From an uncultured archaeon (GTDB lineage: Archaea; Aenigmatarchaeota; Aenigmatarchaeia; Aenigmatarchaeales; DAIDAN01): DNA of 64,000 nt. A program made the position numbers and the translations under genes. Shown here piece after piece: positions 4,671-52,440 of this stretch (its first letter is position 1; every line of letters begins with the position of its first letter). The stretch is taken from contig CAZJGC010000003.1 in NCBI GenBank assembly GCA_964545795.1, positions 738-64,737 of the forward strand, read 5' to 3'. The notes under the pieces are model-generated. The model saw nothing but the letters and a program-made list of their open reading frames with translations, was not told the origin of the DNA and searched no databases.

Positions 4671-7304
4671 TTATATTTTAACAACTGTTCCAACATATCC
4701 GTCCTTCTCAAAATTCAGTTGCCCTCCGCATTCGGGGCACTTGCCAACAAGAGGAATTCTTCTGAAAGACCATTTGCATTTAATGCACGAAACAGCATCA
4801 AAACCCTCCAATATAGTCTCCTGAGCAGGTTTTGATGAAAAAACTTCAAAAAGACTCTTCTGTCTTGAACCTTCAAGAAGTTCAGCCTTATCCACGCCGC
4901 ATGCTTTAAAAATTCTCTCTATAGGAGGCAATATCTGGTTCTCTATATAATATTTTGAATCAATTTCAAGCCCCTTCTCTTTAACATATTCAGGGTCCTC
5001 TGCCCTTTTTGACAAGAGTTGGTTTCCCTTAATTATAACATAAGAAATTCTCTCTCCAACTGTTATGTTTCTTGTCGCATCTCTTGCATTTATCTTCTTT
5101 GCAAGCTCAACATGCGGTTGCACGCCGTCATAACTGTTCAGCGATTTGGTTATTCCTTTAACAATAGAAAGCTTTTCTAATGGTATTTTGCCTTCAGAAA
5201 GGCTTTTTATAACCTCTCTGACGTATTTAGACGCTTTTATTATATCTCCTTCCTTAAGAATTATATTTAATACGTTCATCATTGTTTCCCCTGTAAGTGA
5301 ACACCAATCCCTTCTAACAGTTTCTATTCCCTTCATTTCTATTTTATTTTCACCTTCTTCAAATTTCCAGCCCGCATATCGCTTCTTTGTAATAATAAGG
5401 AATGTTTTGTATGTTTTTTCAAATTTAAGGTTTAAAACTCCGGGCAATCTCTCTGAAACAAACTCAGAAATTTCTCTTCCTAACTTCTCTGCCTCCTCAA
5501 TATCAGATGTATTTGTTTCCACAAAAATAGAATCAGTATCGCCATAAACAACTCTTACAGGAAAATTCTCTTCAACCATTTTTTGCGTTTTCAGAATATT
5601 CTCCCTGCCATACGCCGTAACCGAGTTGGCAACATCCATAACATAAAGCCTTGCCCTTAAATAGCCTGTATAACCATATAAACTGTTAGCCATATCCTTT
5701 AAAGCCAACTGTTTTGCATTTAGCAATCTTTTTTCATCTCCTTCTGAAGATTTCATCCTTTTCTTAACAGCCGCGCGCGCTTCCATTAACTCCTTAAGAA
5801 CAGCTGGCAAAACCCCTTCCCTTACTTCAGGTTTCACAAATTTTACTCCCTGTGGGGTTGTGAAATGTTCAACATCATATTTATTATTAATAAGCAGAGT
5901 AGATGGGCATATATTGAATGTGCGTATTATGGACGGATATAGGCTTGTGAAATCAAGAACAACCACGCATTTATCTTTATACAACCCTGTAATGGGTTCA
6001 AGAACAATTGCGCCTTTAAGTCCTGCCTCCTCTCTTTCCTCTTTATATTTCATCAACTCGGCTGCTTCAGGTTTGCACGGCATTAGCATATTTCTCTTTC
6101 TAAATTCATGCAAAAGCCTGCACTCATGCCTCTGCGACTGTCCTCCTAAACTGTCCTGCAAAAGCAGACCTGATATTTTAGAAAGCTCAAAAAACTTGTC
6201 AATAAGGTTTTTTTCAATAACAAGAGCCAAAGCAAGCTCGGAGTCAACGCGGCAATACTCAACAAATTTGTTTAAATCCGCTGTATCCCCATTCCATAAT
6301 TTTTTCATTTCCTTTGGTCCTCCTACTTCAATTTTTTTCTTTCCAAGCATAGCCTCCGCTATTGTCCCCAAATCATATCTTTTAAATTTAACCCATGGAT
6401 CTCTTTTTATTATCTCATAAGGGTCAACAATAATGCGTCCTGATACAGAACACATATAACTGTTTTGCAGTTTTCTGCAGACAGAAGGCTTGCTTGACCT
6501 GCCAAAAGAACTGGAAACCCCAAGAACTTCCATTCTCTTTACAATATAAGGCAAATCAAAGTTGTTAATGTTATAACCTACTATAATATCAGGGTCAAAA
6601 GACTCTATTATATCGCTAAACTTTTCCAGCATCTGTTTTTCATCAGAACATATTATTGCATTGCCGTTCATACACTGCTTGCTAATAAGAACAGTTGTTT
6701 TTTTGCCGTTAAAATCAGGATAAAAAGCCATGCTTATCATGATTATCGGGTCTTTTTCAAAATCAGGCATTCTGTCATCGCTCTCAGATATGCATTCAAT
6801 ATCAAAACTAACATAACGCAGGGGCGCGTTCCCTTCTTTTTCTATTGTTCTTACTTTGTCTGCATCTATAGCCCTGCATTTTACGGTTTTCGTAAATGCT
6901 GGAGAACCTTCAATTTCAACCCATGACATTCCCCATAAATCATAATCAACCATAAACCTGTACTTAAAAAGAATGTCAGCCTCATAAACAGTTCCATAAG
7001 GTTTTAATCTCTCCTTTATTTCAGGTATTTTTCCCGGGTCTTTGCCCGTAATTTTCAAAACCTGTTTGGACTCATTATAACCAATTGGTATTATTTTTTT
7101 CTCAACATTTATAGAAACATTATAATCTTTTAACACTTCGCGTATTTTATCAGTGTCCTGAGAATCTATATAACAGTACGGAAGGAAATTCTTAAAGAAA
7201 GCGCATACTGTTTCTCCTTGTTCTGTTTTTCCAAAAAGCCTTACCAAAGGCTTTCCATTAAGCATAACATAATCACAATCAAGAATCTGCATTGCAACTC
7301 TCAT
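4671..7304 (-). CDS. polB: family-B DNA polymerase (PolB) with C-terminal zinc ribbon
   Basis: Exo motif FDIE, YGDTDS polymerase motif, K-x3-NS-x-YG motif, and C-terminal Cys4 ribbon (CIKCKW...CPECGG). At 877 aa there is no room for an intein. Confidence 0.95.
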   Translation of the reverse strand: MRVAMQILDCDYVMLNGKPLVRLFGKTEQGETVCAFFKNFLPYCYIDSQDTDKIREVLKDYNVSINVEKKIIPIGYNESKQVLKITGKDPGKIPEIKERLKPYGTVYEADILFKYRFMVDYDLWGMSWVEIEGSPAFTKTVKCRAIDADKVRTIEKEGNAPLRYVSFDIECISESDDRMPDFEKDPIIMISMAFYPDFNGKKTTVLISKQCMNGNAIICSDEKQMLEKFSDIIESFDPDIIVGYNINNFDLPYIVKRMEVLGVSSSFGRSSKPSVCRKLQNSYMCSVSGRIIVDPYEIIKRDPWVKFKRYDLGTIAEAMLGKKKIEVGGPKEMKKLWNGDTADLNKFVEYCRVDSELALALVIEKNLIDKFFELSKISGLLLQDSLGGQSQRHECRLLHEFRKRNMLMPCKPEAAELMKYKEEREEAGLKGAIVLEPITGLYKDKCVVVLDFTSLYPSIIRTFNICPSTLLINNKYDVEHFTTPQGVKFVKPEVREGVLPAVLKELMEARAAVKKRMKSSEGDEKRLLNAKQLALKDMANSLYGYTGYLRARLYVMDVANSVTAYGRENILKTQKMVEENFPVRVVYGDTDSIFVETNTSDIEEAEKLGREISEFVSERLPGVLNLKFEKTYKTFLIITKKRYAGWKFEEGENKIEMKGIETVRRDWCSLTGETMMNVLNIILKEGDIIKASKYVREVIKSLSEGKIPLEKLSIVKGITKSLNSYDGVQPHVELAKKINARDATRNITVGERISYVIIKGNQLLSKRAEDPEYVKEKGLEIDSKYYIENQILPPIERIFKACGVDKAELLEGSRQKSLFEVFSSKPAQETILEGFDAVSCIKCKWSFRRIPLVGKCPECGGQLNFEKDGYVGTVVKI

Positions 7305-7327
7305 GCTACATCCTTTGTTTTTGAAAC

Positions 7328-8203
7328 TTAAATTATTTTTTTATTTATTTCAACCCTGCCTGTATGCAACTCTATCTTTGCTGTTTGTTTCTCATTAATG
7401 CCAATAATTTTCACTCCATTATAATCTTTAATACCAACACCAGAGAAGCACAAAAAATAATCAGGAACTTCATCAAGTATGTTTTCTTCATAAATTCTTC
7501 CGGGATAGAAGCATCTTTTGCTAAGCACGGTTACAGGGTCTTTTGTATTAAAAACAAGAATCAATATATTATTAATTTTAACATAAACAGGATTTGAAGA
7601 GGCGAACAAAGAGTCTTTCTCTATTCTTGTCTCATTATCAAAAAATATTTTATAATCTCCGCAGTTTCCATTGAAACAAACAGTGCATTTCTTTCCTGAA
7701 ATTTTCGGAGTGTTTTTTATATTTGGATATTCTACAAACTCGGCATGCAGCACTTTATCTTTTACAATGCCGGAAACAAGAACAATTTCATCATTTATCA
7801 GTTTAATGCCATCTTTCAATCTTACCTTTATTTCGCCTGTTGGGTCTTCAATTTCAGCTTCATTGTTCTTAACATTTTTAACAATGCCTATAACAGATGC
7901 ATCACCAAAAACATTTGATATAGAAACAGTGTTTTTCTTTTTCACAAAATATTCGCTCATTTTCTGATAATATCTATTGTAAACTGCAACCAATTCATGA
8001 ACAGTATATTTCTTTTGCTCATGTTTCTTTTCAACCACTTCAAAAACATTTTCAAAAAAATCCTCTCCTATAACCAATGGTTTTTCTTTTTTTATTCGCT
8101 CAATAACTGCTTTAATCTCATGCTCGTTTAACCTGTTTATATGTTCGGCTGCTTTTGGTTCAACAAGAACTCCCATATCCATTATTTCTTTTATCACATT
8201 CAT
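7328..8203 (-). CDS. PolD small-subunit (DP1)/B-subunit-like protein: N-terminal DP1-type helical domain plus OB fold; phosphoesterase motifs not detectable
   Basis: N-terminus VIKEIMDMGVLVEPKAAEHI...PLVIGEDFF is like the DP1 N-terminal domain. OB-fold segment ASVIGIVKNVKNNEAEIEDPTGEIKVRLKD...IVLVSGIV matches the RPA/DP1 pattern xEDxTGxIxVxL. Synteny oriC-cdc6-DP1 as in PolD-bearing euryarchaea. No GDxHxG, GDxxDRG or GNHE motifs in the 130-aa C-terminus. Confidence 0.4.
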   Translation of the reverse strand: MNVIKEIMDMGVLVEPKAAEHINRLNEHEIKAVIERIKKEKPLVIGEDFFENVFEVVEKKHEQKKYTVHELVAVYNRYYQKMSEYFVKKKNTVSISNVFGDASVIGIVKNVKNNEAEIEDPTGEIKVRLKDGIKLINDEIVLVSGIVKDKVLHAEFVEYPNIKNTPKISGKKCTVCFNGNCGDYKIFFDNETRIEKDSLFASSNPVYVKINNILILVFNTKDPVTVLSKRCFYPGRIYEENILDEVPDYFLCFSGVGIKDYNGVKIIGINEKQTAKIELHTGRVEINKKII

Positions 8204-8213
8204 ACAAAACTCC

Positions 8214-9401
8214 TTAGTACAAAACCTCGCAAAGAACTTTCTTCATTTTCTCTTTGACAGTGTCGTCAACCATAAGATTTATTATTTTTGTGCGCCCATA
8301 TCTTCCTCTTGAAACATTTTTTGTGCTTATTATTCCAAACATATCAAGTTCAGATATAAGGTCTGAAACTCTTCTTTGAGTCAAAGGTTTTAACCCATAC
8401 TTCACGCAGTTTTTCTGATACTCTGAAAGAACATCTCCTGTAAGAACTTCTTTATTGTTTTCCAGCAAATCCAATATGGTCTGCATAACAATTTGGCTTT
8501 GTTTTGGCTGCGTCTTTACAATTTCAACAAATTTGTCAACATTTATTTTCTCTTCTGCTGAATCAACATGTTTTATTGTTACTTTCCTGCTTCCAGAACG
8601 CTCGGCAATCTCTCCTGCAACGCGGAGCAGATCCAAAGCCCGCCTTGCATCCCCATGCTCCTGTGCAGCAAGCGCAGCGCACTTCTCTATAACACCTTCT
8701 TCTATAACTCCTTCCGAAAAAGCAATTTCAGCCCTCTGCCTCAATATATCCTTTATCTGCGAAGCATTGTATGGAGGAAAAATAAGTTCTTCCTCAGAAA
8801 GAGATGATTTAATTCTTGTATCAAGAGTATTTACAAAACTAAGGTTGTTTGTTATTCCTATCAAACATATTTTTGCATTTTTCAATTCCTGATTTATTCT
8901 TGTCAGATTATAAATAATTTCATCTCCTGTCTTCTGCACAAGAGCATCTATTTCATCAATTATTAAAATCAAAATCTGTTTTTCAGAATCTATAACATCA
9001 AGAAATATTTTATATATCCTGTCAGTAGGAAGTCCTGTAAAAGGAACTTCTTTTCCAAGTTCTTTTAGTATTGTTGCCAATACCCTGTATTCTGTGTCTG
9101 CCACTTTTTTAAGTTTGCAGTTTATATAAACAGATTTTACTTTAAATTTCCTACTAGTTTCAATAAGTTTTTTTGTAACATAACATGAAATCAATGATTT
9201 CCCTGTTCCTGTTCTACCATAAATAAAAACATTGCTTGGTTTTGAACCAACAAGGGCAGGTGCCAAAATTTTGCCAAGTTCCTCTATCTGTTTTTCCCTA
9301 TGCAATATTTTACCAGGAACAAAACAAACAGAAAGAGCATCCCTGTCATTAAATAAACATTGAGATTGTATAAAATCATTAAATATTTTTTCCAAACTCA
9401 T
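8214..9401 (-). CDS. cdc6: Orc1/Cdc6 replication initiator
   Basis: AAA+ Walker A (GRTGTGKS) and Walker B (LILIIDEIDAL) with C-terminal winged helix; lies next to an AT-rich ORB-bearing region. Confidence 0.95.
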   Translation of the reverse strand: MSLEKIFNDFIQSQCLFNDRDALSVCFVPGKILHREKQIEELGKILAPALVGSKPSNVFIYGRTGTGKSLISCYVTKKLIETSRKFKVKSVYINCKLKKVADTEYRVLATILKELGKEVPFTGLPTDRIYKIFLDVIDSEKQILILIIDEIDALVQKTGDEIIYNLTRINQELKNAKICLIGITNNLSFVNTLDTRIKSSLSEEELIFPPYNASQIKDILRQRAEIAFSEGVIEEGVIEKCAALAAQEHGDARRALDLLRVAGEIAERSGSRKVTIKHVDSAEEKINVDKFVEIVKTQPKQSQIVMQTILDLLENNKEVLTGDVLSEYQKNCVKYGLKPLTQRRVSDLISELDMFGIISTKNVSRGRYGRTKIINLMVDDTVKEKMKKVLCEVLY

Positions 9402-9438
9402 TTTATTACAATGGAAATAAAGGTATTTATATTTTTAT

Positions 9439-26144: not shown

Positions 26145-26863
26145 TGGAACATAAAAAATTAAAGATTGGCGGAATACTAGATATTTCTACAATAGATTAT
26201 CCAGGCAAACTCACATCTGTTATTTTTCTTCATGGTTGTAATTTCAGATGTCCATTTTGTTTTAACCCTGAACTTGTGCTAGGAAAACCTTCACGTGAAC
26301 TTCACGTGAAAGAAATAATTGAGAAAATAAGTAATTTCAGGGATTTTATAGATGCGGTAGTTATTACTGGCGGAGAGCCTACGTTGCAACCTCTTGAATT
26401 TTTATGTAAAGAACTTAGAAAAATTGGATTATTTGTAAAGATAGATACGAATGGTTCAAATCCTGATGTTATAGAAAATTTAATAAGAAAGGGGTTGATA
26501 GATTTTGTCGCTCTTGATATAAAAGCGCCTTTTAGCAAATATTCACGCGTGATTGGCAATGTGCGTGAACAAGACGTGAACAATATTAAAAAAACATTTG
26601 AGATGCTTTTGAATTTTGATATAGATTATGAATGTAGAACTCCTGTTGTTCCAAACGTGAATATGCAGCACATGCAGGAACTTGCAGAAGATGTGAAGCC
26701 ATCAAAAGTTTTTGTTCTTGAACAATTTAAATGTGAAAAAGGCACTTTGTCAGGAATAAAAGGCAGCATATCTCGTGAAGAACTTGTGAAAATAGCAAAA
26801 ATGTTCTCAAACAAAACAGTAAAGATAAGAACAGCAGAATCAGGCGAGGAAGTGGTAGCGTGA
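26144..26863 (+). CDS. nrdG: anaerobic RNR activating protein (radical SAM)
   Basis: CNFRCPFC radical-SAM cluster near the N-terminus. It contains three in-frame 11-bp-phased GTGAA pairs (26295/26306, 26565/26576, 26775/26786). Confidence 0.75.
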   Translation: MEHKKLKIGGILDISTIDYPGKLTSVIFLHGCNFRCPFCFNPELVLGKPSRELHVKEIIEKISNFRDFIDAVVITGGEPTLQPLEFLCKELRKIGLFVKIDTNGSNPDVIENLIRKGLIDFVALDIKAPFSKYSRVIGNVREQDVNNIKKTFEMLLNFDIDYECRTPVVPNVNMQHMQELAEDVKPSKVFVLEQFKCEKGTLSGIKGSISREELVKIAKMFSNKTVKIRTAESGEEVVA

Positions 26864-30983: not shown

Positions 30984-31063
30984 TAAAACACCGATGCAGT
31001 TTATCTGCAAACACTTCCTCTTTAGTCTAATAATCAATGTTCAGTTATTTATAGTTTTGTATA

Positions 31064-31267
31064 TTACAATATTTTTTTCTTTGCTTCTTTGACGTCTGAC
31101 AGCAACACAGTTTTTCTGTTGTTCTTTTTTGCTATTGCTGCAGATTCTGCTGCAATGTCTGCTATTACTTCTTCAAGGAATTGCGTAAATTCTATTGCAG
31201 CCGAATTGCTTACTCTAAGCCCATGCTTCATCAGAAATTTTTTTATCGGCGCCAATGGTAAGTCCAT
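31064..31267 (-). CDS. archaeal histone (HMf family)
   Basis: 67 aa with the histone-fold pattern PLAPIKKFLMKHGLRVSNSAAIEFTQFLEEV...RKTVLLSDVKEA. Confidence 0.85.
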   Translation of the reverse strand: MDLPLAPIKKFLMKHGLRVSNSAAIEFTQFLEEVIADIAAESAAIAKKNNRKTVLLSDVKEAKKKIL

Positions 31268-31333
31268 GCATGAATATTAAATGGCTGATTTAAATGTTTT
31301 TGCATGCTCAAACAACAATAGTGCAACAGCAAT

Positions 31334-31935
31334 GTGAGAGTTAGCGCTTGAATGCTAACTTTCTTATATTCTCACAAAATGTATTTTTTAACTTTTGATA
31401 AAAACATTTAGACTAACGTAAAATTCAATACTTGCAAAATTATCTGTTCAATTAAACTCTAACAATGCATTAATCCTAACATTTCTTACAATATGTTGTT
31501 TCAGTGGATGTAAAGGCAAACTCTCACATTTCAATTTACTTTTTATGTTTCCGGATAATTTTTATGAAGGAATCACTCACAATAAGTATGTCTAACACTT
31601 AATAACATAGGTTAATCATTTGGGTGAAGTCTCACTTTTCTCTTGCAGCAGAATTATAACAATGTAATATAACATTGTTATTATATGTTGATAATGATTA
31701 ACTCTCACTTTGTTAATTCTATGGAAAAATAATCTGAAATATGTCAAATAACAATATCAATTATCTTTAATCTCACTTTATGCAGTGCAGATTTTAGTTT
31801 AAGGCCTTTCTTTGGTTATGTTAACCCTCTCTTAATGGAAAAATAACGAAATTATTTGCAGAAATCTTCAAAACTCTTGAAAAATGCGCGAATCCTGTTT
31901 TCTTTGCAAAATGCATTAACTCTCACTTTTAATTT
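31334..31935 (+). repeat. dispersed 14-nt motif TTAACTCTCACTTT, about 7 copies and 1 inverted, within an 860-bp gene-free region
   Basis: Exact copies at 31698 and 31916. Variants at 31368, 31518, 31627, 31768 and 31821. Inverted copy at 31334. Hairpins at 31340-31361 and 31655-31680. Confidence 0.7.
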
Positions 31936-32128
31936 TGCGTGGGTTGTTTTATAAAATATATATTATTATTTATATTTTAAGAAATATTTGTAATATAATA
32001 TTTATAATAAAATATATCTTGCAGGATATTTAATAAAAAACATATGACATAAAAAATATATTTTAAAACATAAATAAGAAAACACTAATTTTAAATAGGG
32101 GTAAAGATAATTATGAATAGGTGTTAGT

Positions 32129-35585: not shown

Positions 35586-35688
35586 AGCCCCGTAGTCTAG
35601 TGGCCAAGGATTACTGGCTCTGGATATTTAAGAGTTACCAGTAGACCCAGGTTCGAATAATCTTTATAAATTCCTGGCGGGGCTACCA
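35586..35688 (+). tRNA. tRNA-Gln (anticodon CUG) with two introns: 13 nt at 37/38 and a 14-nt insertion in the T-loop (near 59/60). CCA is encoded.
   Basis: Manual cloverleaf: acceptor AGCCCCG/CGGGGCU, anticodon stem ACUGG/CCAGU, anticodon CUG at 35620-35622, T-stem CCAGG/CCUGG with T-loop UUCGAAU. Introns at 35624-35636 and 35659-35672. Confidence 0.65.
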
Positions 35689-46587: not shown

Positions 46588-47211
46588 TTGAAGCGCCAAG
46601 TAATTATTATGAAGCATTATTCATTTTATCTTATTGGAATTTGCATAGCAGTTTTTATTCTTCAAAACATATTTCCATGGGTTACTAACAACTTTGCGCT
46701 TATTCAATCCCGCGCTTTAACCGAGCCATGGATGTTTTTGACAAATATTTTTCTGCATGGCAGCGTTCTTCACTTAATGTATAATATGTTTGCTCTTGGT
46801 TTGTTTGGCTTTATTCTTGAAAGAATAGTTGGCAGTAAATTATTTTTAGCAATATTTTTTATAACAGGATTGGTTGCCTCAATAGGAAGTTTTATGTTTT
46901 ATAATGCTTCTCTTGGAGCAAGCGGGGCAATTTTTGGCATTCTCGGAGTTCTTGCTGTTTTAAGACCAAGAATGATGATATGGGTTTATGTTCCAATGCC
47001 AATGATTCTGGCTATTTTTGTCTGGGCTGTTGCAGATTTTATAGGATTGTTCTATCCTTCTGGAGTAGCAAATGTTGCGCATCTTGCAGGCATGGCTTCG
47101 GGAATAATTTTCGGGCTGATTATAAGAGAAAAATTTGCTGAGAAGAAGGAAGTAAGGTATGATATTGATGAAACAAAATTCAGGCAGTGGGAAGACAAAT
47201 GGATGAATTAA
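46588..47211 (+). CDS. rhomboid-family intramembrane serine protease
   Basis: GASGAIFG (GxSG) and AHLAG catalytic dyad; 6 TM helices. Confidence 0.8.
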   Translation: MKRQVIIMKHYSFYLIGICIAVFILQNIFPWVTNNFALIQSRALTEPWMFLTNIFLHGSVLHLMYNMFALGLFGFILERIVGSKLFLAIFFITGLVASIGSFMFYNASLGASGAIFGILGVLAVLRPRMMIWVYVPMPMILAIFVWAVADFIGLFYPSGVANVAHLAGMASGIIFGLIIREKFAEKKEVRYDIDETKFRQWEDKWMN

Positions 47212-47963
47212 TAATTATAGCTTAACACGAGTTTGCTATTCTCGTCTCTAATAAACAGAATATCTTCATCATTATTCCATGCAGGTTTTTTCCTGCACAT
47301 GTAGACTTTTTCTTTTGTATTGTTTCCGCAACCTGTATATACTGTTAGCGTTGAATTTGCAACAAAATTTGAAAATGTATATATAATTCTGTTTCTGTCT
47401 TTTATTGTCCATGAATTTATGTTAATTGGTTTGCATTTGTTTTTAAGAGTAAAGTATTCGCCATTAAGGTTTTTGTTATCATCCCCATATGCATCCCAGA
47501 CAAACTCAGAAACATAAAAGCATTTTGAGTAGTTTCCCTTTTTCCATATTCCAATATTGTTCTGTTTTGCTGTTTGTTCTGCAACCAACAGTTCGTGTTT
47601 TATTCCTTTATGCGTGTATATATGCGCATAACCTCTTTTTACAAGTTCAAGATTTACAAAAATATTCTTAAAATAAATATATCTTAGAAGTCTTCCATAC
47701 CTGTCAGTTTCTTTGCCTTCTATGGTTATGTTCTTTCTTTCTATCATCTGCTTCAGAAAATCTTTTGCTTCCTGATAATATGCTTCTCCTATTTCAGGCG
47801 CATTTATTCCAAGTAATCTTATTGTTCCTATATTGGTTTTTATTGTGTCGCCGTCTATAACTTTTTCTACATATGCTGTTTTGTTCTGGTGAGACATATA
47901 GGAATCAATGAAATAAAAGAATAAAGTAATAAGGATTGCAATCGCAAATGCTGTTTTTCTCAT
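47208..47963 (-). CDS. secreted thermonuclease (SNase-like) fused to a lamin-tail domain
   Basis: Signal/anchor; SNase motifs DGDT, LLGINAPE and DRYGRLL; C-terminal LTD pattern (GEYFTLKN...WTIKD...YTF). Confidence 0.7.
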   Translation of the reverse strand: MRKTAFAIAILITLFFYFIDSYMSHQNKTAYVEKVIDGDTIKTNIGTIRLLGINAPEIGEAYYQEAKDFLKQMIERKNITIEGKETDRYGRLLRYIYFKNIFVNLELVKRGYAHIYTHKGIKHELLVAEQTAKQNNIGIWKKGNYSKCFYVSEFVWDAYGDDNKNLNGEYFTLKNKCKPININSWTIKDRNRIIYTFSNFVANSTLTVYTGCGNNTKEKVYMCRKKPAWNNDEDILFIRDENSKLVLSYNY

Positions 47964-49087
47964 TTTCCAATCCTCAGCAGTCTTCTGATTTTGTCTCTCT
48001 TTCTTTCCTTTTTCCTTAAAAGAAATCTTTCAATATTGTTAAGAGCATTGCCTACAGCAACGCTCAAAATCCATGAAGTAGATTTTGATACAAACATGCC
48101 TTCATCAGTCATTAATCTGCATCTTATAGAGTATTTTATTCTTCCTGTTTTTCTATATTTCTTGATATGAATATACATGTATTGGATTTCATGGAATTGT
48201 GATACTTTTCTGACAAATTCTGATATCTGCTTGTCAATATCAGGGTCGCTTTTATCAAGACCTGTTATTTGCACATATAATCCTTCTTCTTTTTTATGCA
48301 GGGACAAATAAAGTTCTAAAATATCTCTGGTTGTTATTATGCCTATGGGGCTGTTTTCTTCAGTTATAACAACTCCCGGGTTTTTTGCTTCAATCATTTT
48401 GTCTATTATTGATTTTATAGATTCTGTCTTTTCTCCAGAAAGCACATTTTTGTTCATTATTGTTGAAACAGGTATGTTTGTTGTTGTTAATTTTTCTGCA
48501 GCTATTGAATACCAAGGTATTCTTTCTCTTGGTTTTATTGCTTTAAGCAGGTCAAGAACTGAGACAATCCCCACAAGTTCGCCGTAATCATTAACTACAG
48601 GAAGTTTTGATATGTTTTTCTCCCTCATTATAAACCTTGCCTTTCCTATATCGTCAGATTCTTTTATTACTTCGGCTGTGCTCATTATTTCCTCTGCCAA
48701 TGTTCGCCTTATCTGCTCGTTATTTATGGCTTTTAGCAAATCAAAAACAGAGAATATTCCTATAACCTTGTTCTTTTCAACTACGGGCAAAGCCCTGAAA
48801 CCTACTTTAAACAAAAATTCGGAAGCGTCTTCAATTTTCATGTTTTTTGAAAAAGTTGGTGTTTTGATTATGAATTTTTTTATTTTTGTTTTTGTAGGGT
48901 CGGATGCAACGCCTTTTGAGAACAGTTCTTTATAATTTATTATGCCAACATATCTCCCGTTTTCTATTACCGGAGCTTCACGTATATTATACTTTTCCAT
49001 AATGCTTATGAATTTTGTTATGCTGTCATTGGAATTTATGGAAATTACATCTTTGCTCATAAAATCTTTCACAAACATAAATACCAC
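47960..49087 (-). CDS. four-CBS-domain protein with an uncharacterised C-terminal domain
   Basis: Four CBS repeats followed by a roughly 110-aa basic C-terminal domain. Confidence 0.65.
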   Translation of the reverse strand: MVFMFVKDFMSKDVISINSNDSITKFISIMEKYNIREAPVIENGRYVGIINYKELFSKGVASDPTKTKIKKFIIKTPTFSKNMKIEDASEFLFKVGFRALPVVEKNKVIGIFSVFDLLKAINNEQIRRTLAEEIMSTAEVIKESDDIGKARFIMREKNISKLPVVNDYGELVGIVSVLDLLKAIKPRERIPWYSIAAEKLTTTNIPVSTIMNKNVLSGEKTESIKSIIDKMIEAKNPGVVITEENSPIGIITTRDILELYLSLHKKEEGLYVQITGLDKSDPDIDKQISEFVRKVSQFHEIQYMYIHIKKYRKTGRIKYSIRCRLMTDEGMFVSKSTSWILSVAVGNALNNIERFLLRKKERKRDKIRRLLRIGK

Positions 49088-49120
49088 GCAATAAATTATT
49101 AGTATTATGTTTTTATAAAC

Positions 49121-49666
49121 TTAGGGTGTAATTCTGACTATTTCAAAGTATACGACTTTATCATCTTTATCTACCAAAGCCCAGAGCATATGCGCTCTTA
49201 TGTTATGCGCAAGCCTGACTGCTCTGGAAAGTTCCTGAAAACCGCAGGAATAATTTTTTGGAACAGCAAAAACAATCCATTTTGTATGTTCTGCCGCGCT
49301 TTTTGGACCTCTTTTCAAAGGTTTTACTCCTTTATTATAGACGCGGAAGTCGCAGCCAAACTTGAATCCTGTTCTTGTTGGATATGATTTGTTTCTAAGG
49401 TCAGTGTAAACAATAAATCTTTCCCTGAATCTGTTGTCTATAGAGCAGCAATAATCAAAAAATTCATTAAATCCCATTTTTTTATTGTTGTTGTAAATTG
49501 TTATTTTCTTTTTTTTATATAGAAATGCTGCTTCCACAAGAGATAATTCAAGCCTGTCTTCTCTAAGCCTTCCATAATAATCATTTTCAAATATGTTTTT
49601 TGCTGCATTTCTGTCCCATATAAAAACCTTGTCCTGAGCAATCTGCGCTTTTATCATAATCATCAC
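49121..49666 (-). CDS. endA: tRNA-splicing endonuclease subunit (EndA family; retains the Tyr and His of the catalytic triad)
   Basis: YTDLRNKSYPTRTGFKFGCDFRVY...AEHTKWIVFAV...RLAHNIRAHMLWALVD matches the EndA catalytic-domain pattern. Confidence 0.8.
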   Translation of the reverse strand: MMIMIKAQIAQDKVFIWDRNAAKNIFENDYYGRLREDRLELSLVEAAFLYKKKKITIYNNNKKMGFNEFFDYCCSIDNRFRERFIVYTDLRNKSYPTRTGFKFGCDFRVYNKGVKPLKRGPKSAAEHTKWIVFAVPKNYSCGFQELSRAVRLAHNIRAHMLWALVDKDDKVVYFEIVRITP

Positions 49667-49669
49667 ATT

Positions 49670-50188
49670 TTATATCTTCAGTTCATTTACAGCATAATAA
49701 GTTATGTCTGTGTCGTTGTCTACAACTGCCCATAGCGCAGTTGTTTTAATGTTTTGTGAGAGTTTTGTTGCTCTCTCAAGCATGCTAAAATCCGAAGGAT
49801 AATCTTCAGATGCAACAAAAACTATCCATTTTACTTTTTCTGCTTTATTTGGTTTTGCACCCCTGTCATAAACCCGAAGGTCCATGCCTTTAAATCCGAC
49901 TCTGACGGGGAGCCCCCTTTCTCTCATGTCTTTATAAACATAATAAAGATTAGTGAAATTATTGATTTTTGAGCAGCAGTAGTGATAAAAGTCAGAGAAT
50001 GATAATTTCTTGTTTTTAATAAATACTTCAAGCCTTCCTCTTTCCTGCAAAAGAAGAGCTTCCACAAGAGATAATTCAAGATTTCCTGATTTTATGTTTC
50101 CATACCATCCGTTGTCAAAGTATTCTTTGCCTTCTTTATCTTCTACTATTACTTTTATGTCTTCAATTCTTCCTTGCATAGAATTCAC
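49670..50188 (-). CDS. tRNA-splicing endonuclease paralogous subunit (EndA family; the His position is substituted, so it is likely the structural partner)
   Basis: YKDMRERGLPVRVGFKGMDLRVY...KVKWIVFVAS...ALWAVVD. It is a paralogue of the adjacent gene, with a KAEKVKW segment in place of AEHTKW. Confidence 0.7.
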   Translation of the reverse strand: MNSMQGRIEDIKVIVEDKEGKEYFDNGWYGNIKSGNLELSLVEALLLQERGRLEVFIKNKKLSFSDFYHYCCSKINNFTNLYYVYKDMRERGLPVRVGFKGMDLRVYDRGAKPNKAEKVKWIVFVASEDYPSDFSMLERATKLSQNIKTTALWAVVDNDTDITYYAVNELKI

Positions 50189-50213
50189 CGGAATTTAATT
50201 AATTATTTCAGAT

Positions 50214-50768
50214 TTATAAATCAATATTTATTCCCTTCATAGCCATATTTATTTTGCAGTTTCTGCAGAACTCTCTTCTCTTGATGTCTATATCCTTTGC
50301 GCTTGGTGACGGCGACATTATGCAGAAAATGTGCTTGCAGTGGTTTAGTCCTATATGATGCCCGATTTCATGCATTGCTTCTTTCACAATCCTGTCTATA
50401 AGAATCATATTATTTGGCTTCTGGTCATAAAATTCGGGTTTTAGTCTGGCTATGGATATAACAGAGCATGCATTTTCAGGTTCTTCTATGCTGAAAACAA
50501 AGTTTAAACCTTTATAATATATATCTTCTTCTGTTATTCCGATTGTGGGAATTGATTTGTCTATAAACTTTCCTTCGTTTGTGCTTGCAATAATGTCTAT
50601 TATCTTTGATGCGTCATATTGCCTTCTTAATGCATTGAATGCGGAATCAATGTATTTTATTTGCGGCAGTATCTTGCATCTTACATTTATGCTTGCTTCC
50701 AGTTCTTTGCAAAATTTTTGCAAGAGGTTTAGTGATATGTATTTTATTGGCAGAATGCGTATTAACAT
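50214..50768 (-). CDS. amzA: archaemetzincin (peptidase M54)
   Basis: HEIGHHIGLNHC...C and a following CRNC: the HEXXHXXGX3C...CXXC zinc motifs of archaemetzincins. Confidence 0.85.
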   Translation of the reverse strand: MLIRILPIKYISLNLLQKFCKELEASINVRCKILPQIKYIDSAFNALRRQYDASKIIDIIASTNEGKFIDKSIPTIGITEEDIYYKGLNFVFSIEEPENACSVISIARLKPEFYDQKPNNMILIDRIVKEAMHEIGHHIGLNHCKHIFCIMSPSPSAKDIDIKRREFCRNCKINMAMKGINIDL

Positions 50769-50799: not shown

Positions 50800-51894
50800 T
50801 TATTTTACGTAATATCCCACGGCTTCTGATATGTTTCTAAACCCGTCATGTTCTAAAAACTGAGATAATTCATAATTTATTTTATTGCAGACAAAAGGGC
50901 CTTCATATGGTATTGCCGTAAATATTTTTTCTAAATTAGAGCCGAGCAAAATCTTTTCATAAGCGTCTTTGCCTGAAAATATCCCGCCAACGCCTATTAT
51001 GCTTTGGTCTTCTTCCTTTATTTTATAAACCTGCTCAATCAGTTTGTTTGACTTCAATTTAAGAGGCTTTCCGCTTAATCCTCCCCTTAATTTCTTTGTG
51101 TTTTTTTCATTTGTTTTCAAGCATTCTCTTGATTCTGTTGTGTTGCATATCACAAATCCGTTAATGTCATAATCTTTGCAGATTTCAATGTCTCTTTCAA
51201 GAACATTATTTTTGATGTCAGGCGAGATTTTCAGAAATACAGGCTTCCAGTCGTATGAGCAGCGTTCATCATCTATTTTTGAGAGGAGATTTTCTAAATT
51301 ATCTGGTTCTTCAAATTTTCTGCTTTCAGATGTATTTGGACAGGATATATTAAGTATTGTGCCGCATCCAAACTGGTGTAATTTTCTGAAAGAAGAAAGA
51401 ATGTCGTCAAATCCGGAATAGTCAGATGCGCATGCGTTATGAGTTTTTGCTATGCTTACAAAGTAAGGTATTTTTGGTTTTGATTTTTTTATTAATATGG
51501 ATATTTTAGTTGCGCCATAATTTTCCAACCCAATTCTGTTTATAATGGCTTCATCTTCAGGAAGCCTGAATATTCTGGGTTTATTGTTGCCTTTGCTTTC
51601 TTTTGCTGTAACAGAACCAACTACGTGAAAGCCAAATCCGGCATAGTGCGCAATATTCAATAGTTTTCCATTCTTGTCAAACCCTGCCGCCATGCCAAGA
51701 GGGTTTTCAAATTTTATTCCAAATAACTCTGTTTCAAGGTTTTTATTCTTGTATATTAGTTTTTTCCCCAATTCGTCAAAAACAGGATTGTTTATTTTTC
51801 CAATAAGATAGCCTGCTGAAATTGCTGCATTATGCGCTGTTTCAGGGTATAAATGAAACAGCGCAGGCCTTATAATTTTTTTGTAAATGTTCAT
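50800..51894 (-). CDS. pyrD: dihydroorotate dehydrogenase, class 2 (quinone-dependent)
   Basis: FGIKFENPLGMAAGFDKNG, GFGFHVVGSVT and PRIFRLPEDEAIINRIG motifs. The start was reset to MNIYKK because the track's upstream extension overlaps tRNA-Phe. Confidence 0.8.
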   Translation of the reverse strand: MNIYKKIIRPALFHLYPETAHNAAISAGYLIGKINNPVFDELGKKLIYKNKNLETELFGIKFENPLGMAAGFDKNGKLLNIAHYAGFGFHVVGSVTAKESKGNNKPRIFRLPEDEAIINRIGLENYGATKISILIKKSKPKIPYFVSIAKTHNACASDYSGFDDILSSFRKLHQFGCGTILNISCPNTSESRKFEEPDNLENLLSKIDDERCSYDWKPVFLKISPDIKNNVLERDIEICKDYDINGFVICNTTESRECLKTNEKNTKKLRGGLSGKPLKLKSNKLIEQVYKIKEEDQSIIGVGGIFSGKDAYEKILLGSNLEKIFTAIPYEGPFVCNKINYELSQFLEHDGFRNISEAVGYYVK

Positions 51895-51925
51895 GGTATA
51901 TAGAATGAAATTAAAACTTTTTAAG

Positions 51926-52053
51926 TGGTGAGGCGGGCGTGATTTGAATTCGCGGAGCCTTTTTCGGCAGATGCTCACACGCGACAACACGGTGTCCAGT
52001 TACTTCAGCCGTGCGCTCTCCCGAGCTGAGCTTACGGTAAAAAATACCGCCTC
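51926..52053 (-). tRNA. tRNA-Phe (anticodon GAA) apparently carrying three introns; CCA is encoded
   Basis: Minus-strand cloverleaf: acceptor GAGGCGG/CCGCCUC, U8A9, D-arm GCUC-AGCUCGGGA-GAGC, anticodon stem CACGG/CCGUG with loop CUGAAG..A, T-stem GCGUG/CACGC with T-loop UUCAAAU, discriminator A. Insertions of 13 nt (52032-52044), 9 nt (51994-52002) and 29 nt (51949-51977) bring 128 nt down to 77 nt. Confidence 0.55.
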
Positions 52054-52352: not shown

Positions 52353-52440
52353 TGGCGCCTGGGACAGGACTCGAACCTGCGACCACCTGGTTTCTGTATA
52401 AATTAACAGCCAGGTGCTCTACCTGCTGAGCTACCCAGGC
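52353..52440 (-). tRNA. tRNA-Asn (anticodon GUU) with a 12-nt canonical intron at 37/38; CCA is encoded
   Basis: Acceptor GCCUGGG/CCCAGGC, D-arm GCUC-AGCAGGUA-GAGC, anticodon stem CCUGG/CCAGG, anticodon GUU at 52405-52407, intron at 52392-52403, T-loop UUCGAGU. Confidence 0.85.

Follow-up and report, generated by a model that had tools for sequence, protein, structure and literature searches.

Hetero-oligomeric enzymes built by duplication and subfunctionalisation have a standard example in the tRNA-splicing endonuclease EndA, which also illustrates how the four-subunit eukaryotic TSEN may have originated. The alpha4 form is regarded as the prototype from which the other types arose by duplication and subfunctionalisation, the (alpha-beta)2 enzymes of Crenarchaeota and other TACK archaea being the textbook case (PMC6379350). 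In (alpha-beta)2 enzymes, the acidic loop L10 determines the formation of the heterotetramer and is conserved on the structural subunit, not on the catalytic one (PMC2761253). According to the literature, all four archaeal EndA types and the eukaryotic Sen2 and Sen34 share a conserved Tyr-His-Lys triad, whose Lys contacts the scissile phosphate in every EndA characterised. For DPANN archaea, Kaneta et al. 2018 listed only the alpha4, (alpha-beta)2 and epsilon2 types, noting that alpha'2 was missing, and described a loop, L3; L3-bearing enzymes accompany more disrupted tRNA genes, the effect of L3 on specificity being correlative only (PMC5829648). The broad specificity of TACK and Asgard enzymes comes from an N-terminal Crenarchaea-specific loop (L1), which is absent in DPANN (PMC5829648).

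Here we describe two adjacent EndA genes, UP and DN, in a 64,000-nucleotide stretch of DNA from an uncultured member of the Aenigmatarchaeota (DPANN), hereafter the window. From their sequences, we consider it likely that they encode the structural (beta-like) and the catalytic (alpha) subunits of an obligate (alpha-beta)2-type endonuclease, derived by tandem duplication from a single-gene alpha4-like EndA. The (alpha-beta)2 enzyme of Nanoarchaeum equitans, NEQ205 + NEQ261 (PDB 3IEY), is likewise a DPANN enzyme made of a catalytic and a structural subunit, with an acidic L10 on the structural subunit only. The same heterotetramer logic, with a catalytic/structural split, is found in crenarchaeal/TACK species (A. 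pernix, P. aerophilum, S. solfataricus/tokodaii) and in M. kandleri. The two-subunit design is already known; here it appears to have arisen independently.

Two adjacent EndA genes in an Aenigmatarchaeota genome

The first-pass annotation of the window had placed two EndA-family genes head to tail, and two intact open reading frames were found exactly there. It had called DN the first gene and UP the second, which holds by coordinate; by transcription, the His-less UP comes first.

49670-50188, minus strand: UP, gene of the putative structural (beta-like) EndA subunit, 172 aa from GTG 50188
49121-49666, minus strand: DN, gene of the putative catalytic (alpha) EndA subunit, 181 aa from GTG 49666
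49667-49672, minus strand: UP/DN junction, consisting of the UP stop TAA (49672-49670) and one AAT codon ahead of the DN start, which is in frame with UP (3-nt spacer)

Public gene calls start UP at ATG 50179, which gives 169 aa, and public collections contain an exact match to it (P0121). For DN, ATG 49663 is an alternative start (180 aa).

Both proteins matched tRNA_int_endo_N (PF02778) and tRNA_int_endo (PF01974) with E-values of 1e-15 to 1e-23, the scores being 70.7 and 80.5 bits for DN and 54.4 and 59.0 bits for UP (cut-offs 21 and 27). Both also lay above the cut-off of TIGR00324 endA (96.2 and 85.2 against 59.6), which confirmed their assignment to the EndA family. The best solved structures for DN were the catalytic subunit of N. 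equitans (3iey_A, E = 2.6e-29) and then the M. jannaschii enzyme (1a79, E = 3.5e-28), while the best PDB match of UP was M. jannaschii 1A79 (E = 8e-25, 90.6 bits). UP and DN share their domain layout with M. jannaschii alpha4 and with the single-gene EndAs of Aenigmatarchaeota, and are of similar length (about 170-215 aa); most of the single-gene relatives carry an extra Lys-rich N-terminal tail of 20-40 aa. The label that both subunits bear in current annotation is merely 'tRNA-intron lyase'.

The order and orientation of UP and DN were kept in 15 tandem-pair loci from metagenome-assembled genomes of Aenigmatarchaeota (14 of them distinct, the window counted). The arrangement is mostly operonic: in 13 of the 15, the distance between the UP stop and the DN start is within -4 to +31 nt, whereas the two N. 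equitans genes are non-adjacent by their locus numbers. Both genes are under strong purifying selection, with dN/dS values of 0.04-0.07 among UP orthologues and of about 0.05 for DN.

Catalytic residues and the assembly loop are divided between UP and DN

Residue equivalences were derived from pairwise alignments to solved structures, with residue numbers taken from PMC2761253.

49337-49339, minus strand: DN Tyr110, predicted catalytic Tyr (= MJ Y115 = NEQ205 Y86)
49286-49288, minus strand: DN His127, predicted catalytic His (= MJ H125 = NEQ205 H102)
49292-49324, minus strand: DN insert KPLKRGPKSAA between Tyr and His, equated with the 'L3' DPANN loop (PMC5829648)
49214-49216, minus strand: DN Arg151 (= AFU R280 = ARMAN-2 R275)
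49868-49870, minus strand: UP Tyr107, the Tyr kept in UP, by alignment to solved structures
49835-49837, minus strand: UP Lys118, at the position of the catalytic His, by alignment to solved structures

The protein in which the first-pass annotation had recognised both Tyr and His (FRVY...AEHTKW) is DN, with Y110 and H127, and the one that it described as having replaced the His and kept the Tyr (KAEKVKW) is UP, with K118 and Y107; the alignments agreed with both descriptions. The Tyr was invariant in the aligned single-unit members of the family (114/114 in one alignment and 218/218 in another). The position of the His was variable in the UP family, being occupied by N, K, E, S, A, V, G or T in 64 UP-like sequences.

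All 15 DN proteins had the Tyr, the His, the insert and the Arg, and all 15 UP proteins lacked the His and the 6-residue insert; at the position equivalent to AFU R280, UP had Lys or another non-Arg residue in 14 of the 15 pairs. In A. fulgidus and ARMAN-2, this Arg makes a cation-pi interaction with the bulge base and contacts the phosphate, acting on the opposite active site (PMC12397907). The insert adds 6-7 residues to DN and aligns with the inserts of NEQ205, which is of similar length and basic character, and of ARMAN-2; its Gly120 and Lys122 occupy positions that at least 90% of the DN proteins, and likewise of the single-gene proteins, have kept. The DPANN enzyme of ARMAN-2 (epsilon2, PDB 4FZ2/9W2K) matched DN with E = 9.5e-22 and differs from UP/DN in that it joins three units in one chain and has an extra ASL loop. 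Unlike the TACK enzymes, DN has the Tyr-His insert in place of L1.

A reverse distribution was found for the L10 loop.

49694-49723, minus strand: UP acidic L10 loop VDNDTDITYY, predicted tetramerisation loop, with D157, D161, T163 and Y165 invariant across the family
49145-49174, minus strand: DN degenerate L10 region VDKDDKVVYF, in which the acidic D-x-D-x-T-Y-Y motif is lost

These positions belong to an alignment of the UP family that had 30 invariant columns. The motif D-x-D-x-D-x-T-[YF]-Y was present in UP in 14 of the 15 pairs, the exception (locus L021) having Ser at the third Asp, and its T-Y-Y end in all 15; the net charge of the UP loop is about -3. None of the 15 DN proteins had the motif, and many showed basic residues or deletions instead (e.g. 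VGK--KIKYV). The DN of the window still has three acidic residues in this region, with a net charge of -1, so that this particular orthologue may have some residual self-assembly.

The losses are complementary: the catalytic set (His, insert, Arg) is gone from UP, and L10 is gone from DN. In M. jannaschii and in single-gene Aenigmatarchaeota enzymes, the catalytic residues and L10 come from one gene, whereas here they are split over two. We found 12 related loci with a single EndA gene, 'single-gene' status being judged from about 4 kb on either side, so that a second subunit elsewhere in the genome is possible; in all 12, one protein carried the catalytic set (Tyr, His, insert, Arg) together with L10, i.e. 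all the features that are divided between UP and DN.

Proposed assembly of UP and DN into a heterotetramer

An obligate (alpha-beta)2-type heterotetramer is well supported as a prediction from sequence, because the pattern recurs in all 15 pairs, because the 12 single-gene relatives have everything in one protein and because dN/dS is about 0.05. The first-pass annotation had already proposed an (alpha-beta)2-type enzyme in which one subunit is catalytic and the other structural; this proposal gains from the conservation of the pair, from the asymmetry in L10 and catalytic residues, from the selection on both genes and from the multi-insert tRNA genes of the window.

By analogy with solved EndA structures, such an enzyme might work as follows. 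UP and DN would be co-transcribed; the spacer between them is 3 nt in the window, and relatives show 4-nt overlaps. One UP and one DN would pair via their C-terminal beta strands, and two such heterodimers would be joined by the acidic L10 of each UP docking into a basic pocket on the other dimer's DN. The two DN active sites (Tyr110, His127) would thereby be spaced as the two splice sites are, and Arg151 of each DN may extend to the opposite site and grip the flipped-out base of the bulge there. The insert that separates Tyr from His is rich in Lys and may make the enzyme less dependent on a strict bulge-helix-bulge, which would allow the removal of the very short non-canonical inserts present in tRNA-Phe, tRNA-Gln and tRNA-Asn of the window.

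We considered the possibility that DN alone forms a homotetramer, UP being redundant or having taken a new role outside the endonuclease, for instance in RNA binding or regulation. UP retains its Tyr, the phosphate-binding Lys of 'GFK' and the whole fold, so RNA binding is still possible, and the L10 region of the window DN is partly acidic. Yet the L10 motif has disappeared from DN in 15/15 pairs while being kept in UP as strictly as in single-gene enzymes, and UP is always found beside DN, under the same purifying selection. Furthermore, the isolated catalytic subunits of N. equitans and S. solfataricus are inactive homodimers (PMC2761253). We regard this alternative as unlikely, and keep the heterotetramer of UP and DN as the favoured reading.

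Origin of the pair

The pair appears to stem from a lineage-specific tandem duplication; we propose that a single-gene alpha4-like EndA of Aenigmatarchaeota was duplicated in tandem and that the two copies then underwent subfunctionalisation. UP and DN were 40% identical over 175 residues (E = 3e-47, 139 bits), and UP resembled DN and M. jannaschii alpha (90.6 bits) far more than it did N. equitans beta (34 bits) or the NCBIfam models of beta subunits. With the latter (NF007084/5/6), it scored 29.6, 25.5 and 15.3 bits, below the cut-offs of 157, 101 and 162. On these scores (29.6 bits against 157; 34 bits), we rejected UP as an orthologue of the crenarchaeal/nanoarchaeal beta subunit. The scores point to an origin of UP independent of the known beta subunits, UP being beta-like in its predicted role and not a member of the beta family; NEQ261 is also shorter (153 aa). 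In contrast to the situation in N. equitans, UP and the alpha subunit beside it are clearly paralogues that separated recently.

Trees were built by neighbour-joining with 100 bootstraps, and their support was weak save for the monophyly of groups. The UP clade (71-79% bootstrap) fell beside or among the single-gene proteins of Aenigmatarchaeota, and the UP and DN subtrees partly mirrored each other.

Alternatively, the pair might be an unfused relative of the euryarchaeal alpha' enzyme, ancestral to it or derived from it by splitting, so that UP would correspond to its N unit and DN to its C unit, with no recent duplication in Aenigmatarchaeota. The alpha'2 enzymes (A. fulgidus; Methanosarcinales-type, NF006795), like a fused 360-aa family of Aenigmatarchaeota (P0182, P0348, P0351), show the same order in DNA, i.e. 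an L10-bearing unit that is His-less or degenerate followed by a catalytic one, but are single polypeptides, whereas UP and DN are separate genes, each with a stop and a start of its own. UP and DN match NF006795 half by half, in co-linear order; among Methanosarcinales-type proteins, UP scored better against N units and DN against C units, and one neighbour-joining tree made UP the sister of the alpha' N units. The alpha' N units moreover share losses with UP, which affect the His and, through a deletion, the K-[FY]-G site, and they too have kept L10, though shared losses are also expected from convergent subfunctionalisation. Several observations speak against this scenario. The grouping of UP with alpha' N units had a bootstrap of 36%, which fell to 11% with more sequences, and that of DN with single-gene proteins and alpha' C units had 8%. 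The UP-DN score of 139 bits exceeds that of either protein against alpha' units (72-119 bits). Finally, the derived motif 'NIR[AST]' is common to UP, DN and single-gene proteins, whereas alpha' units have the canonical 'VRK'. UP and DN were accordingly rejected as orthologues of alpha' units or of the fused Aenigmatarchaeota units, for which the trees (100 bootstraps) gave no support, and a common origin of the pair with alpha' is quite improbable compared with a duplication within Aenigmatarchaeota.

There is hardly any case for a third scenario, in which UP and DN would be one alpha'-type two-unit gene broken by an in-frame stop (a pseudogene, a sequencing error, or readthrough or recoding of the TAA), the true product being a fused 355-aa homodimer. 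It would fit with the UP stop being in frame with DN and separated from it by a single codon, with the matches of UP to residues 1-163 and of DN to residues 179-348 of the 350-aa model NF006795, in the order of the alpha' units, and with the occurrence of fused two-unit enzymes in other Aenigmatarchaeota. However, an identical junction was found in an independent assembly (L003); UP and DN share a frame in 5 of the 15 loci and are in different frames in the other 10; several relatives have a 4-nt overlap ('GTGATG'), and in two loci the genes are 0.5-1 kb apart. TGA, TAA and TAG are all used as UP stops across the loci, and the two genes possess separate start codons. The fused family of Aenigmatarchaeota also stood apart from the pair, its N units grouping with UP at 1% and its C units with DN at 5% bootstrap. 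On comparing the junctions of the 15 loci, we rejected both readthrough of the in-frame TAA and a pseudogene. The scores against NF006795 (130 and 150 bits, about 280 in sum) were below its cut-off of 501, with the stop codon lying between the units.

An ancestral-like single gene, a split pair and a fused form are available for comparison in one phylum, and the residues lost can be read column by column. Aenigmatarchaeota therefore offer a clean natural experiment for the model of duplication and subfunctionalisation.

The canonical Lys is missing from both proteins

The position of the triad Lys was occupied by other residues in both UP and DN.

49193-49195, minus strand: DN Ala158 ('NIRAH'), canonical triad Lys position (= MJ K156 / NEQ K133 / AFU K287)
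49742-49744, minus strand: UP Thr149 ('NIKTT'), canonical triad Lys position (= MJ K156 / NEQ K133 / AFU K287)

Five independent pairwise alignments (to 1a79, 3iey_A, 5x89, 4fz2 and 2cv8) had no gap near this position. It was Ala in 111 of 114 close homologues, and Ala, Ser or Thr throughout the family formed by UP, DN and the single-gene proteins. Known enzymes differ in this respect: in NEQ205 the counterpart of DN Ala158 is the canonical Lys133, the crenarchaeal/TACK and M. kandleri enzymes keep the triad Lys, and ARMAN-2 epsilon2 keeps Lys282 on the scissile phosphate. Neither the window nor the related loci showed a canonical EndA.

This finding modifies the idea, put forward in the first-pass annotation, of a complementary loss of triad positions. 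The losses are indeed complementary, as catalytic residues on one side and assembly loop on the other, but they are not so within the triad, the His being absent from UP and the Lys from both proteins. Taken literally, both proteins lack the full triad, an outcome that the annotation had counted against its own reading; the absence of Lys is a trait of the whole family, and the asymmetry between a catalytic and a structural subunit stands.

With the Lys missing here, Tyr-His-Lys can no longer be called conserved in all EndAs. Since this residue contacts the phosphate in every characterised enzyme, the activity of DN is not to be assumed. That neither protein is an active nuclease and that introns are removed by something else, as the Ala and Thr at a position held conserved in all four archaeal types and in Sen2/Sen34 could suggest, is nevertheless very improbable, given that 145 of the 154 His-bearing single-unit homologues are without the canonical Lys and have an invariant Tyr and His, that selection is strongly purifying and that intron-bearing tRNA genes in the same window require an endonuclease.

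With DN taken as the catalytic subunit, the missing Lys raises a testable question, namely which residue stabilises the transition state. Our preferred guess is Lys122 of the insert, in the conserved 'G-P-K'. We tentatively extend this to a wider proposal, which may well prove wrong: Aenigmatarchaeota EndAs, together with similar enzymes that carry the labels Nanohaloarchaea and Diapherotrites, might have a rewired active site, in which the helix-borne Lys was replaced by Ala, Ser or Thr and its role in the transition state moved to the insert Lys ('G-P-K', DN Lys122) or, in insert-less 'VKT' variants, to a Lys shifted by one position; the phylum would have re-enacted the single-gene, tandem two-gene and fused two-unit forms of EndA independently of other archaea.

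tRNA genes with short inserts in the window

Three tRNA genes of the window are likely substrates of the enzyme.

51926-52053, minus strand: tRNA-Phe(GAA) with three inserts, CCA encoded
35586-35688, plus strand: tRNA-Gln(CUG) with two inserts, CCA encoded
52353-52440, minus strand: tRNA-Asn(GUU) with one 12-nt insert at 37/38 (52392-52403), Rfam 62.9 bits

The inserts of tRNA-Phe are 13 nt after position 8 (52033-52045), 9 nt at 37/38 (51994-52002) and 29 nt after position 53 (51949-51977), and those of tRNA-Gln are 13 nt at 37/38 (35624-35636) and 14 nt after the T-loop (35659-35672). The presence of multi-intron tRNAs, to which the first-pass annotation had linked the endonuclease, was thereby corroborated, as removal of the inserts in silico turned both tRNA-Phe and tRNA-Gln into perfect cloverleaves. 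The 9-nt insert of tRNA-Phe is too short for a standard bulge-helix-bulge motif, and minimum-free-energy folds of the pre-tRNAs showed no clear bulge-helix-bulge, save a relaxed one in tRNA-Asn.

tRNA-Phe was found by a scan for GC islands combined with a scan for acceptor-stem pairing, and tRNA-Gln by reading a gap free of open reading frames. Matches to a T-arm pattern at 26453, 61756 and 63910 lie inside coding sequence and were rejected as tRNAs. ARAGORN (default and intron modes) and Rfam (gathering and E-value thresholds) reported tRNA-Asn only, missing tRNA-Phe and tRNA-Gln. Since standard finders miss tRNA genes with several short inserts, the annotation of such genomes under-counts their tRNAs.

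Two adjacent genes for EndA-like proteins

Two complete open reading frames of the tRNA-splicing endonuclease (EndA) family follow each other at 49121-50188, and the motif strings quoted in the first-pass annotation are found in them. We call the gene transcribed first UP and the second DN.

49670-50188, minus strand: UP, complete ORF, 172 aa
49672-49670, minus strand: stop codon of UP, TAA
49121-49666, minus strand: DN, complete ORF downstream of UP, 181 aa

Each protein scores well over the threshold for both Pfam EndA domains and passes NCBIfam model TIGR00324. The two share 40% identity (E = 3e-47), and the GC content is about 34%. The TAA of UP is followed by a single codon, AAT, and then by the start of DN (GTG at 49666 or ATG at 49663) in the same frame as UP. 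An identical gene pair with an identical junction is present in an independent assembly. The close relatives are all from metagenome-assembled genomes (MAGs), nearly all labelled Candidatus Aenigmatarchaeota.

The in-frame stop suggested a broken or read-through two-unit gene, and UP and DN match, respectively, the first and second halves of the alpha'-type model NF006795 (350 aa). We rejected this possibility after comparing the junctions of 15 UP-DN loci, the window counted. UP and DN share a frame in only 5 of them, UP ends in TGA, TAA or TAG, and DN starts -4 to +31 nt from the UP stop at 13 loci, some junctions overlapping as 'GTGATG'; at two loci the genes are parted by a further 0.5-1 kb. 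Since frames, stops and spacing all vary, UP and DN are, on this comparative evidence, two co-transcribed genes that would be translated separately.

The pair lies in a same-strand block (47208-50768, minus strand) with the order archaemetzincin (Peptidase_M54), UP, DN, CBS-domain protein and SNase-domain protein. This block is conserved at L001, a locus of a relative (4826-9437), where DN and the CBS gene are separated by an extra gene of 191 aa. A Lys-rich N-terminal tail of 20-40 aa ('MGKKNKQKKEKKE...') is present in most catalytic-type homologues but not in the window's DN. Its N-terminus (49640-49666) was compared with L001 (6001-6108) and two further loci, L004 and L005; 'NVMIM' at the junction matches the start of the protein P0008, the next ~33 residues being absent in the window.

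UP and DN have complementary losses

We compared 27 loci (one genome per species, plus contigs from exact protein look-up). UP followed by DN was found at 15 loci, the window counted (14 distinct; L001 and L002 are the same locus in two assemblies), and a single DN-like gene (S) at 12.

Residues and motifs in single-gene proteins (S), UP and DN
Catalytic Tyr: S kept; UP kept; DN kept
Catalytic His: S kept; UP lost, position variable; DN kept
Thr/Ser after the His: S kept; UP lost; DN kept
Insert between Tyr and His: S kept; UP deleted (spacing 10 instead of 16); DN kept
Phe of the 'K-F-G' phosphate-binding motif: S kept; UP deleted; DN kept
Arg equivalent to A. fulgidus R280 / ARMAN-2 R275: S kept; UP replaced, mostly by Lys; DN kept
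Acidic loop L10, 'VDN[DE]x[DN]xTYY': S kept; UP T-Y-Y end in 15/15, full acidic motif in 14/15; DN lost in 15/15 (basic residues or deletions)

The comparison showed that the losses in UP and DN are complementary, with a clean predicted split of functions; the Thr/Ser after the His touches the phosphate through its backbone in known structures. The structural subunit of an (alpha-beta)2 enzyme inserts its L10 into a basic pocket on the catalytic subunit opposite, whose own L10 is not conserved, and swapping L10 alone alters assembly behaviour (PMC2761253). The L10 criterion that defines these enzymes in that study is the pattern seen here, kept in UP and lost in DN. UP is not a decaying gene: its close orthologues give a dN/dS of 0.04-0.07, as do those of DN, and an alignment of 24 UP sequences has 30 invariant columns.

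The canonical lysine is missing throughout the family

Residues were assigned by alignment to solved structures, with the N. equitans, M. jannaschii and A. fulgidus numbering of PMC2761253.

Active-site positions
Catalytic Tyr: M. jannaschii Y115; N. equitans Y86; DN Tyr110; UP Tyr107
Catalytic His: M. jannaschii H125; N. equitans H102; DN His127; UP Lys118
Canonical Lys: M. jannaschii K156; N. equitans K133; DN Ala158; UP Thr149

The first-pass annotation had described complementary losses within the catalytic triad, with Tyr and His in one protein and Tyr without His in the other. Its reading of these two residues was right, as the structure alignments indicate, but the full triad occurs in neither protein. 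The position of the canonical Lys is secure: in each of five different structures the surrounding helix ('RAVRLAHNIRAHMLWA' vs 'FVRVAHSVRKKLLIA') aligned gap-free. According to reviews and structural papers, the triad is a conserved feature of all four archaeal types of EndA and of eukaryotic Sen2/Sen34, and its Lys forms a hydrogen bond to the scissile phosphate.

Judging from the alignments, loss of this Lys is a family trait, not a peculiarity of the window: the position is Ala in 111 of 114 aligned single-unit sequences, and Ala, Ser or Thr in 145 of 154 His-bearing single-unit homologues. An exhaustive search, with representatives clustered at 50% identity, gave Tyr-His-Lys in 127 aligned units and Tyr-His-[Ala/Ser/Thr] in about a dozen clusters, labelled Aenigmarchaeota, Nanohaloarchaea or Diapherotrites where members are named. 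Every Lys-less, insert-bearing enzyme has 'G-[PQE]-K' within its insert, whereas insert-bearing enzymes with the canonical Lys, including that of N. equitans, have Arg at the corresponding site. Outside the window, four insert-less EndA clusters (P0214, P0273, P0283 and P0309; one labelled Diapherotrites) have Tyr, His and Thr for the canonical Lys, with a Lys one residue earlier in two of them ('VKT', not 'VRK'). The window's UP has the same kind of motif, 'IKT'.

Insert-bearing tRNAs in the window

ARAGORN called no tRNA in the window and Rfam only tRNA-Asn(GUU); the unspliced tRNA-Phe and tRNA-Gln were missed by both.

52353-52440: tRNA-Asn(GUU), 12-nt insert at 37/38; Rfam
51926-52053, minus strand: tRNA-Phe(GAA), three inserts: 13 nt after position 8, 9 nt after position 37 and 29 nt after position 53; GC-island and acceptor-stem scans
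35586-35688, plus strand: tRNA-Gln(CUG), a 13-nt insert at 37/38 and a 14-nt insert after the T-loop; reading of ORF-free gaps

Removing the inserts in silico, their borders being ambiguous by 1-2 bases, gave perfect cloverleaves with encoded CCA, which ARAGORN then called as Phe, Gln and Asn. The multi-intron tRNAs announced for this window are thus real, with three inserts in tRNA-Phe and two in tRNA-Gln. On folding, only tRNA-Asn of the three displayed an evident relaxed bulge-helix-bulge motif; the 9-nt insert of tRNA-Phe at 37/38 is below the length for a standard one. The multi-insert tRNAs are consistent with the reported association of insert-bearing DPANN EndAs with disrupted tRNA genes (Kaneta et al. 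2018, PMC5829648).

Origin of the pair and other architectures

UP is 40-48% identical to DN and S proteins and far more distant from N. equitans beta (34 bits), from the NCBIfam beta models (29.6 bits at most; cut-offs 101-162) and from both units of alpha' enzymes. In neighbour-joining trees with bootstrap, UP orthologues are monophyletic (71-79%), DN orthologues fall among S, and the two subtrees are partial mirror images, the pattern expected from one duplication followed by co-inheritance. One tree placed UP orthologues as sister to the N-terminal units of alpha' enzymes, with 36% support that dropped to 11% when taxa were added.

Other Aenigmatarchaeota MAGs encode a fused two-unit EndA of 360 aa (~21 clusters: P0182, P0348, P0351 and ~18 more; none in the window). 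Tyr and His occur in both of its units, each with Ser in place of the canonical Lys; the acidic L10 is kept in the N unit and lost from the C unit, which retains the insert. The units did not group with UP or DN orthologues by neighbour-joining. Single, split and fused EndAs thus all occur among MAGs labelled Aenigmatarchaeota. The fused form is an alpha'-like architecture within DPANN; this phylum was not sampled by Kaneta et al. 2018, who noted alpha'2 as absent from DPANN (PMC5829648).

A probable two-subunit endonuclease

The complementary losses, the conserved pair and the selection on both genes support the earlier proposal of a two-subunit enzyme, and we consider it well supported and probable that UP and DN form such a splicing endonuclease. 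By analogy with solved homologues, UP-DN heterodimers would form via C-terminal strands and join into a tetramer via L10 of UP; the two DN active sites would be served by Arg151 acting cross-subunit, and the Tyr-His insert would broaden specificity. The design itself is already known. What would be new is its independent rise by tandem duplication, in a phylum without earlier description of such an enzyme (a literature search found no paper describing an EndA of Aenigmatarchaeota), and its construction on a family-wide active-site variant without the canonical Lys.

Other features of the window

50800-51990, minus strand: gene whose longest ORF has a GTG start overlapping the tRNA-Phe gene
31038-32128: AT-rich 1.1-kb stretch (GC 0.27), all ORFs shorter than 100 aa

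The true start of the gene is probably the downstream Met of 'MNIYKKII'. In the AT-rich stretch a motif like 'AACTCTCAC(T/A)TT' occurs at least five times in direct orientation and once inverted ('GTGAGAGTT', near 31335). The stretch may be a repeat array, replication-origin-like or regulatory.
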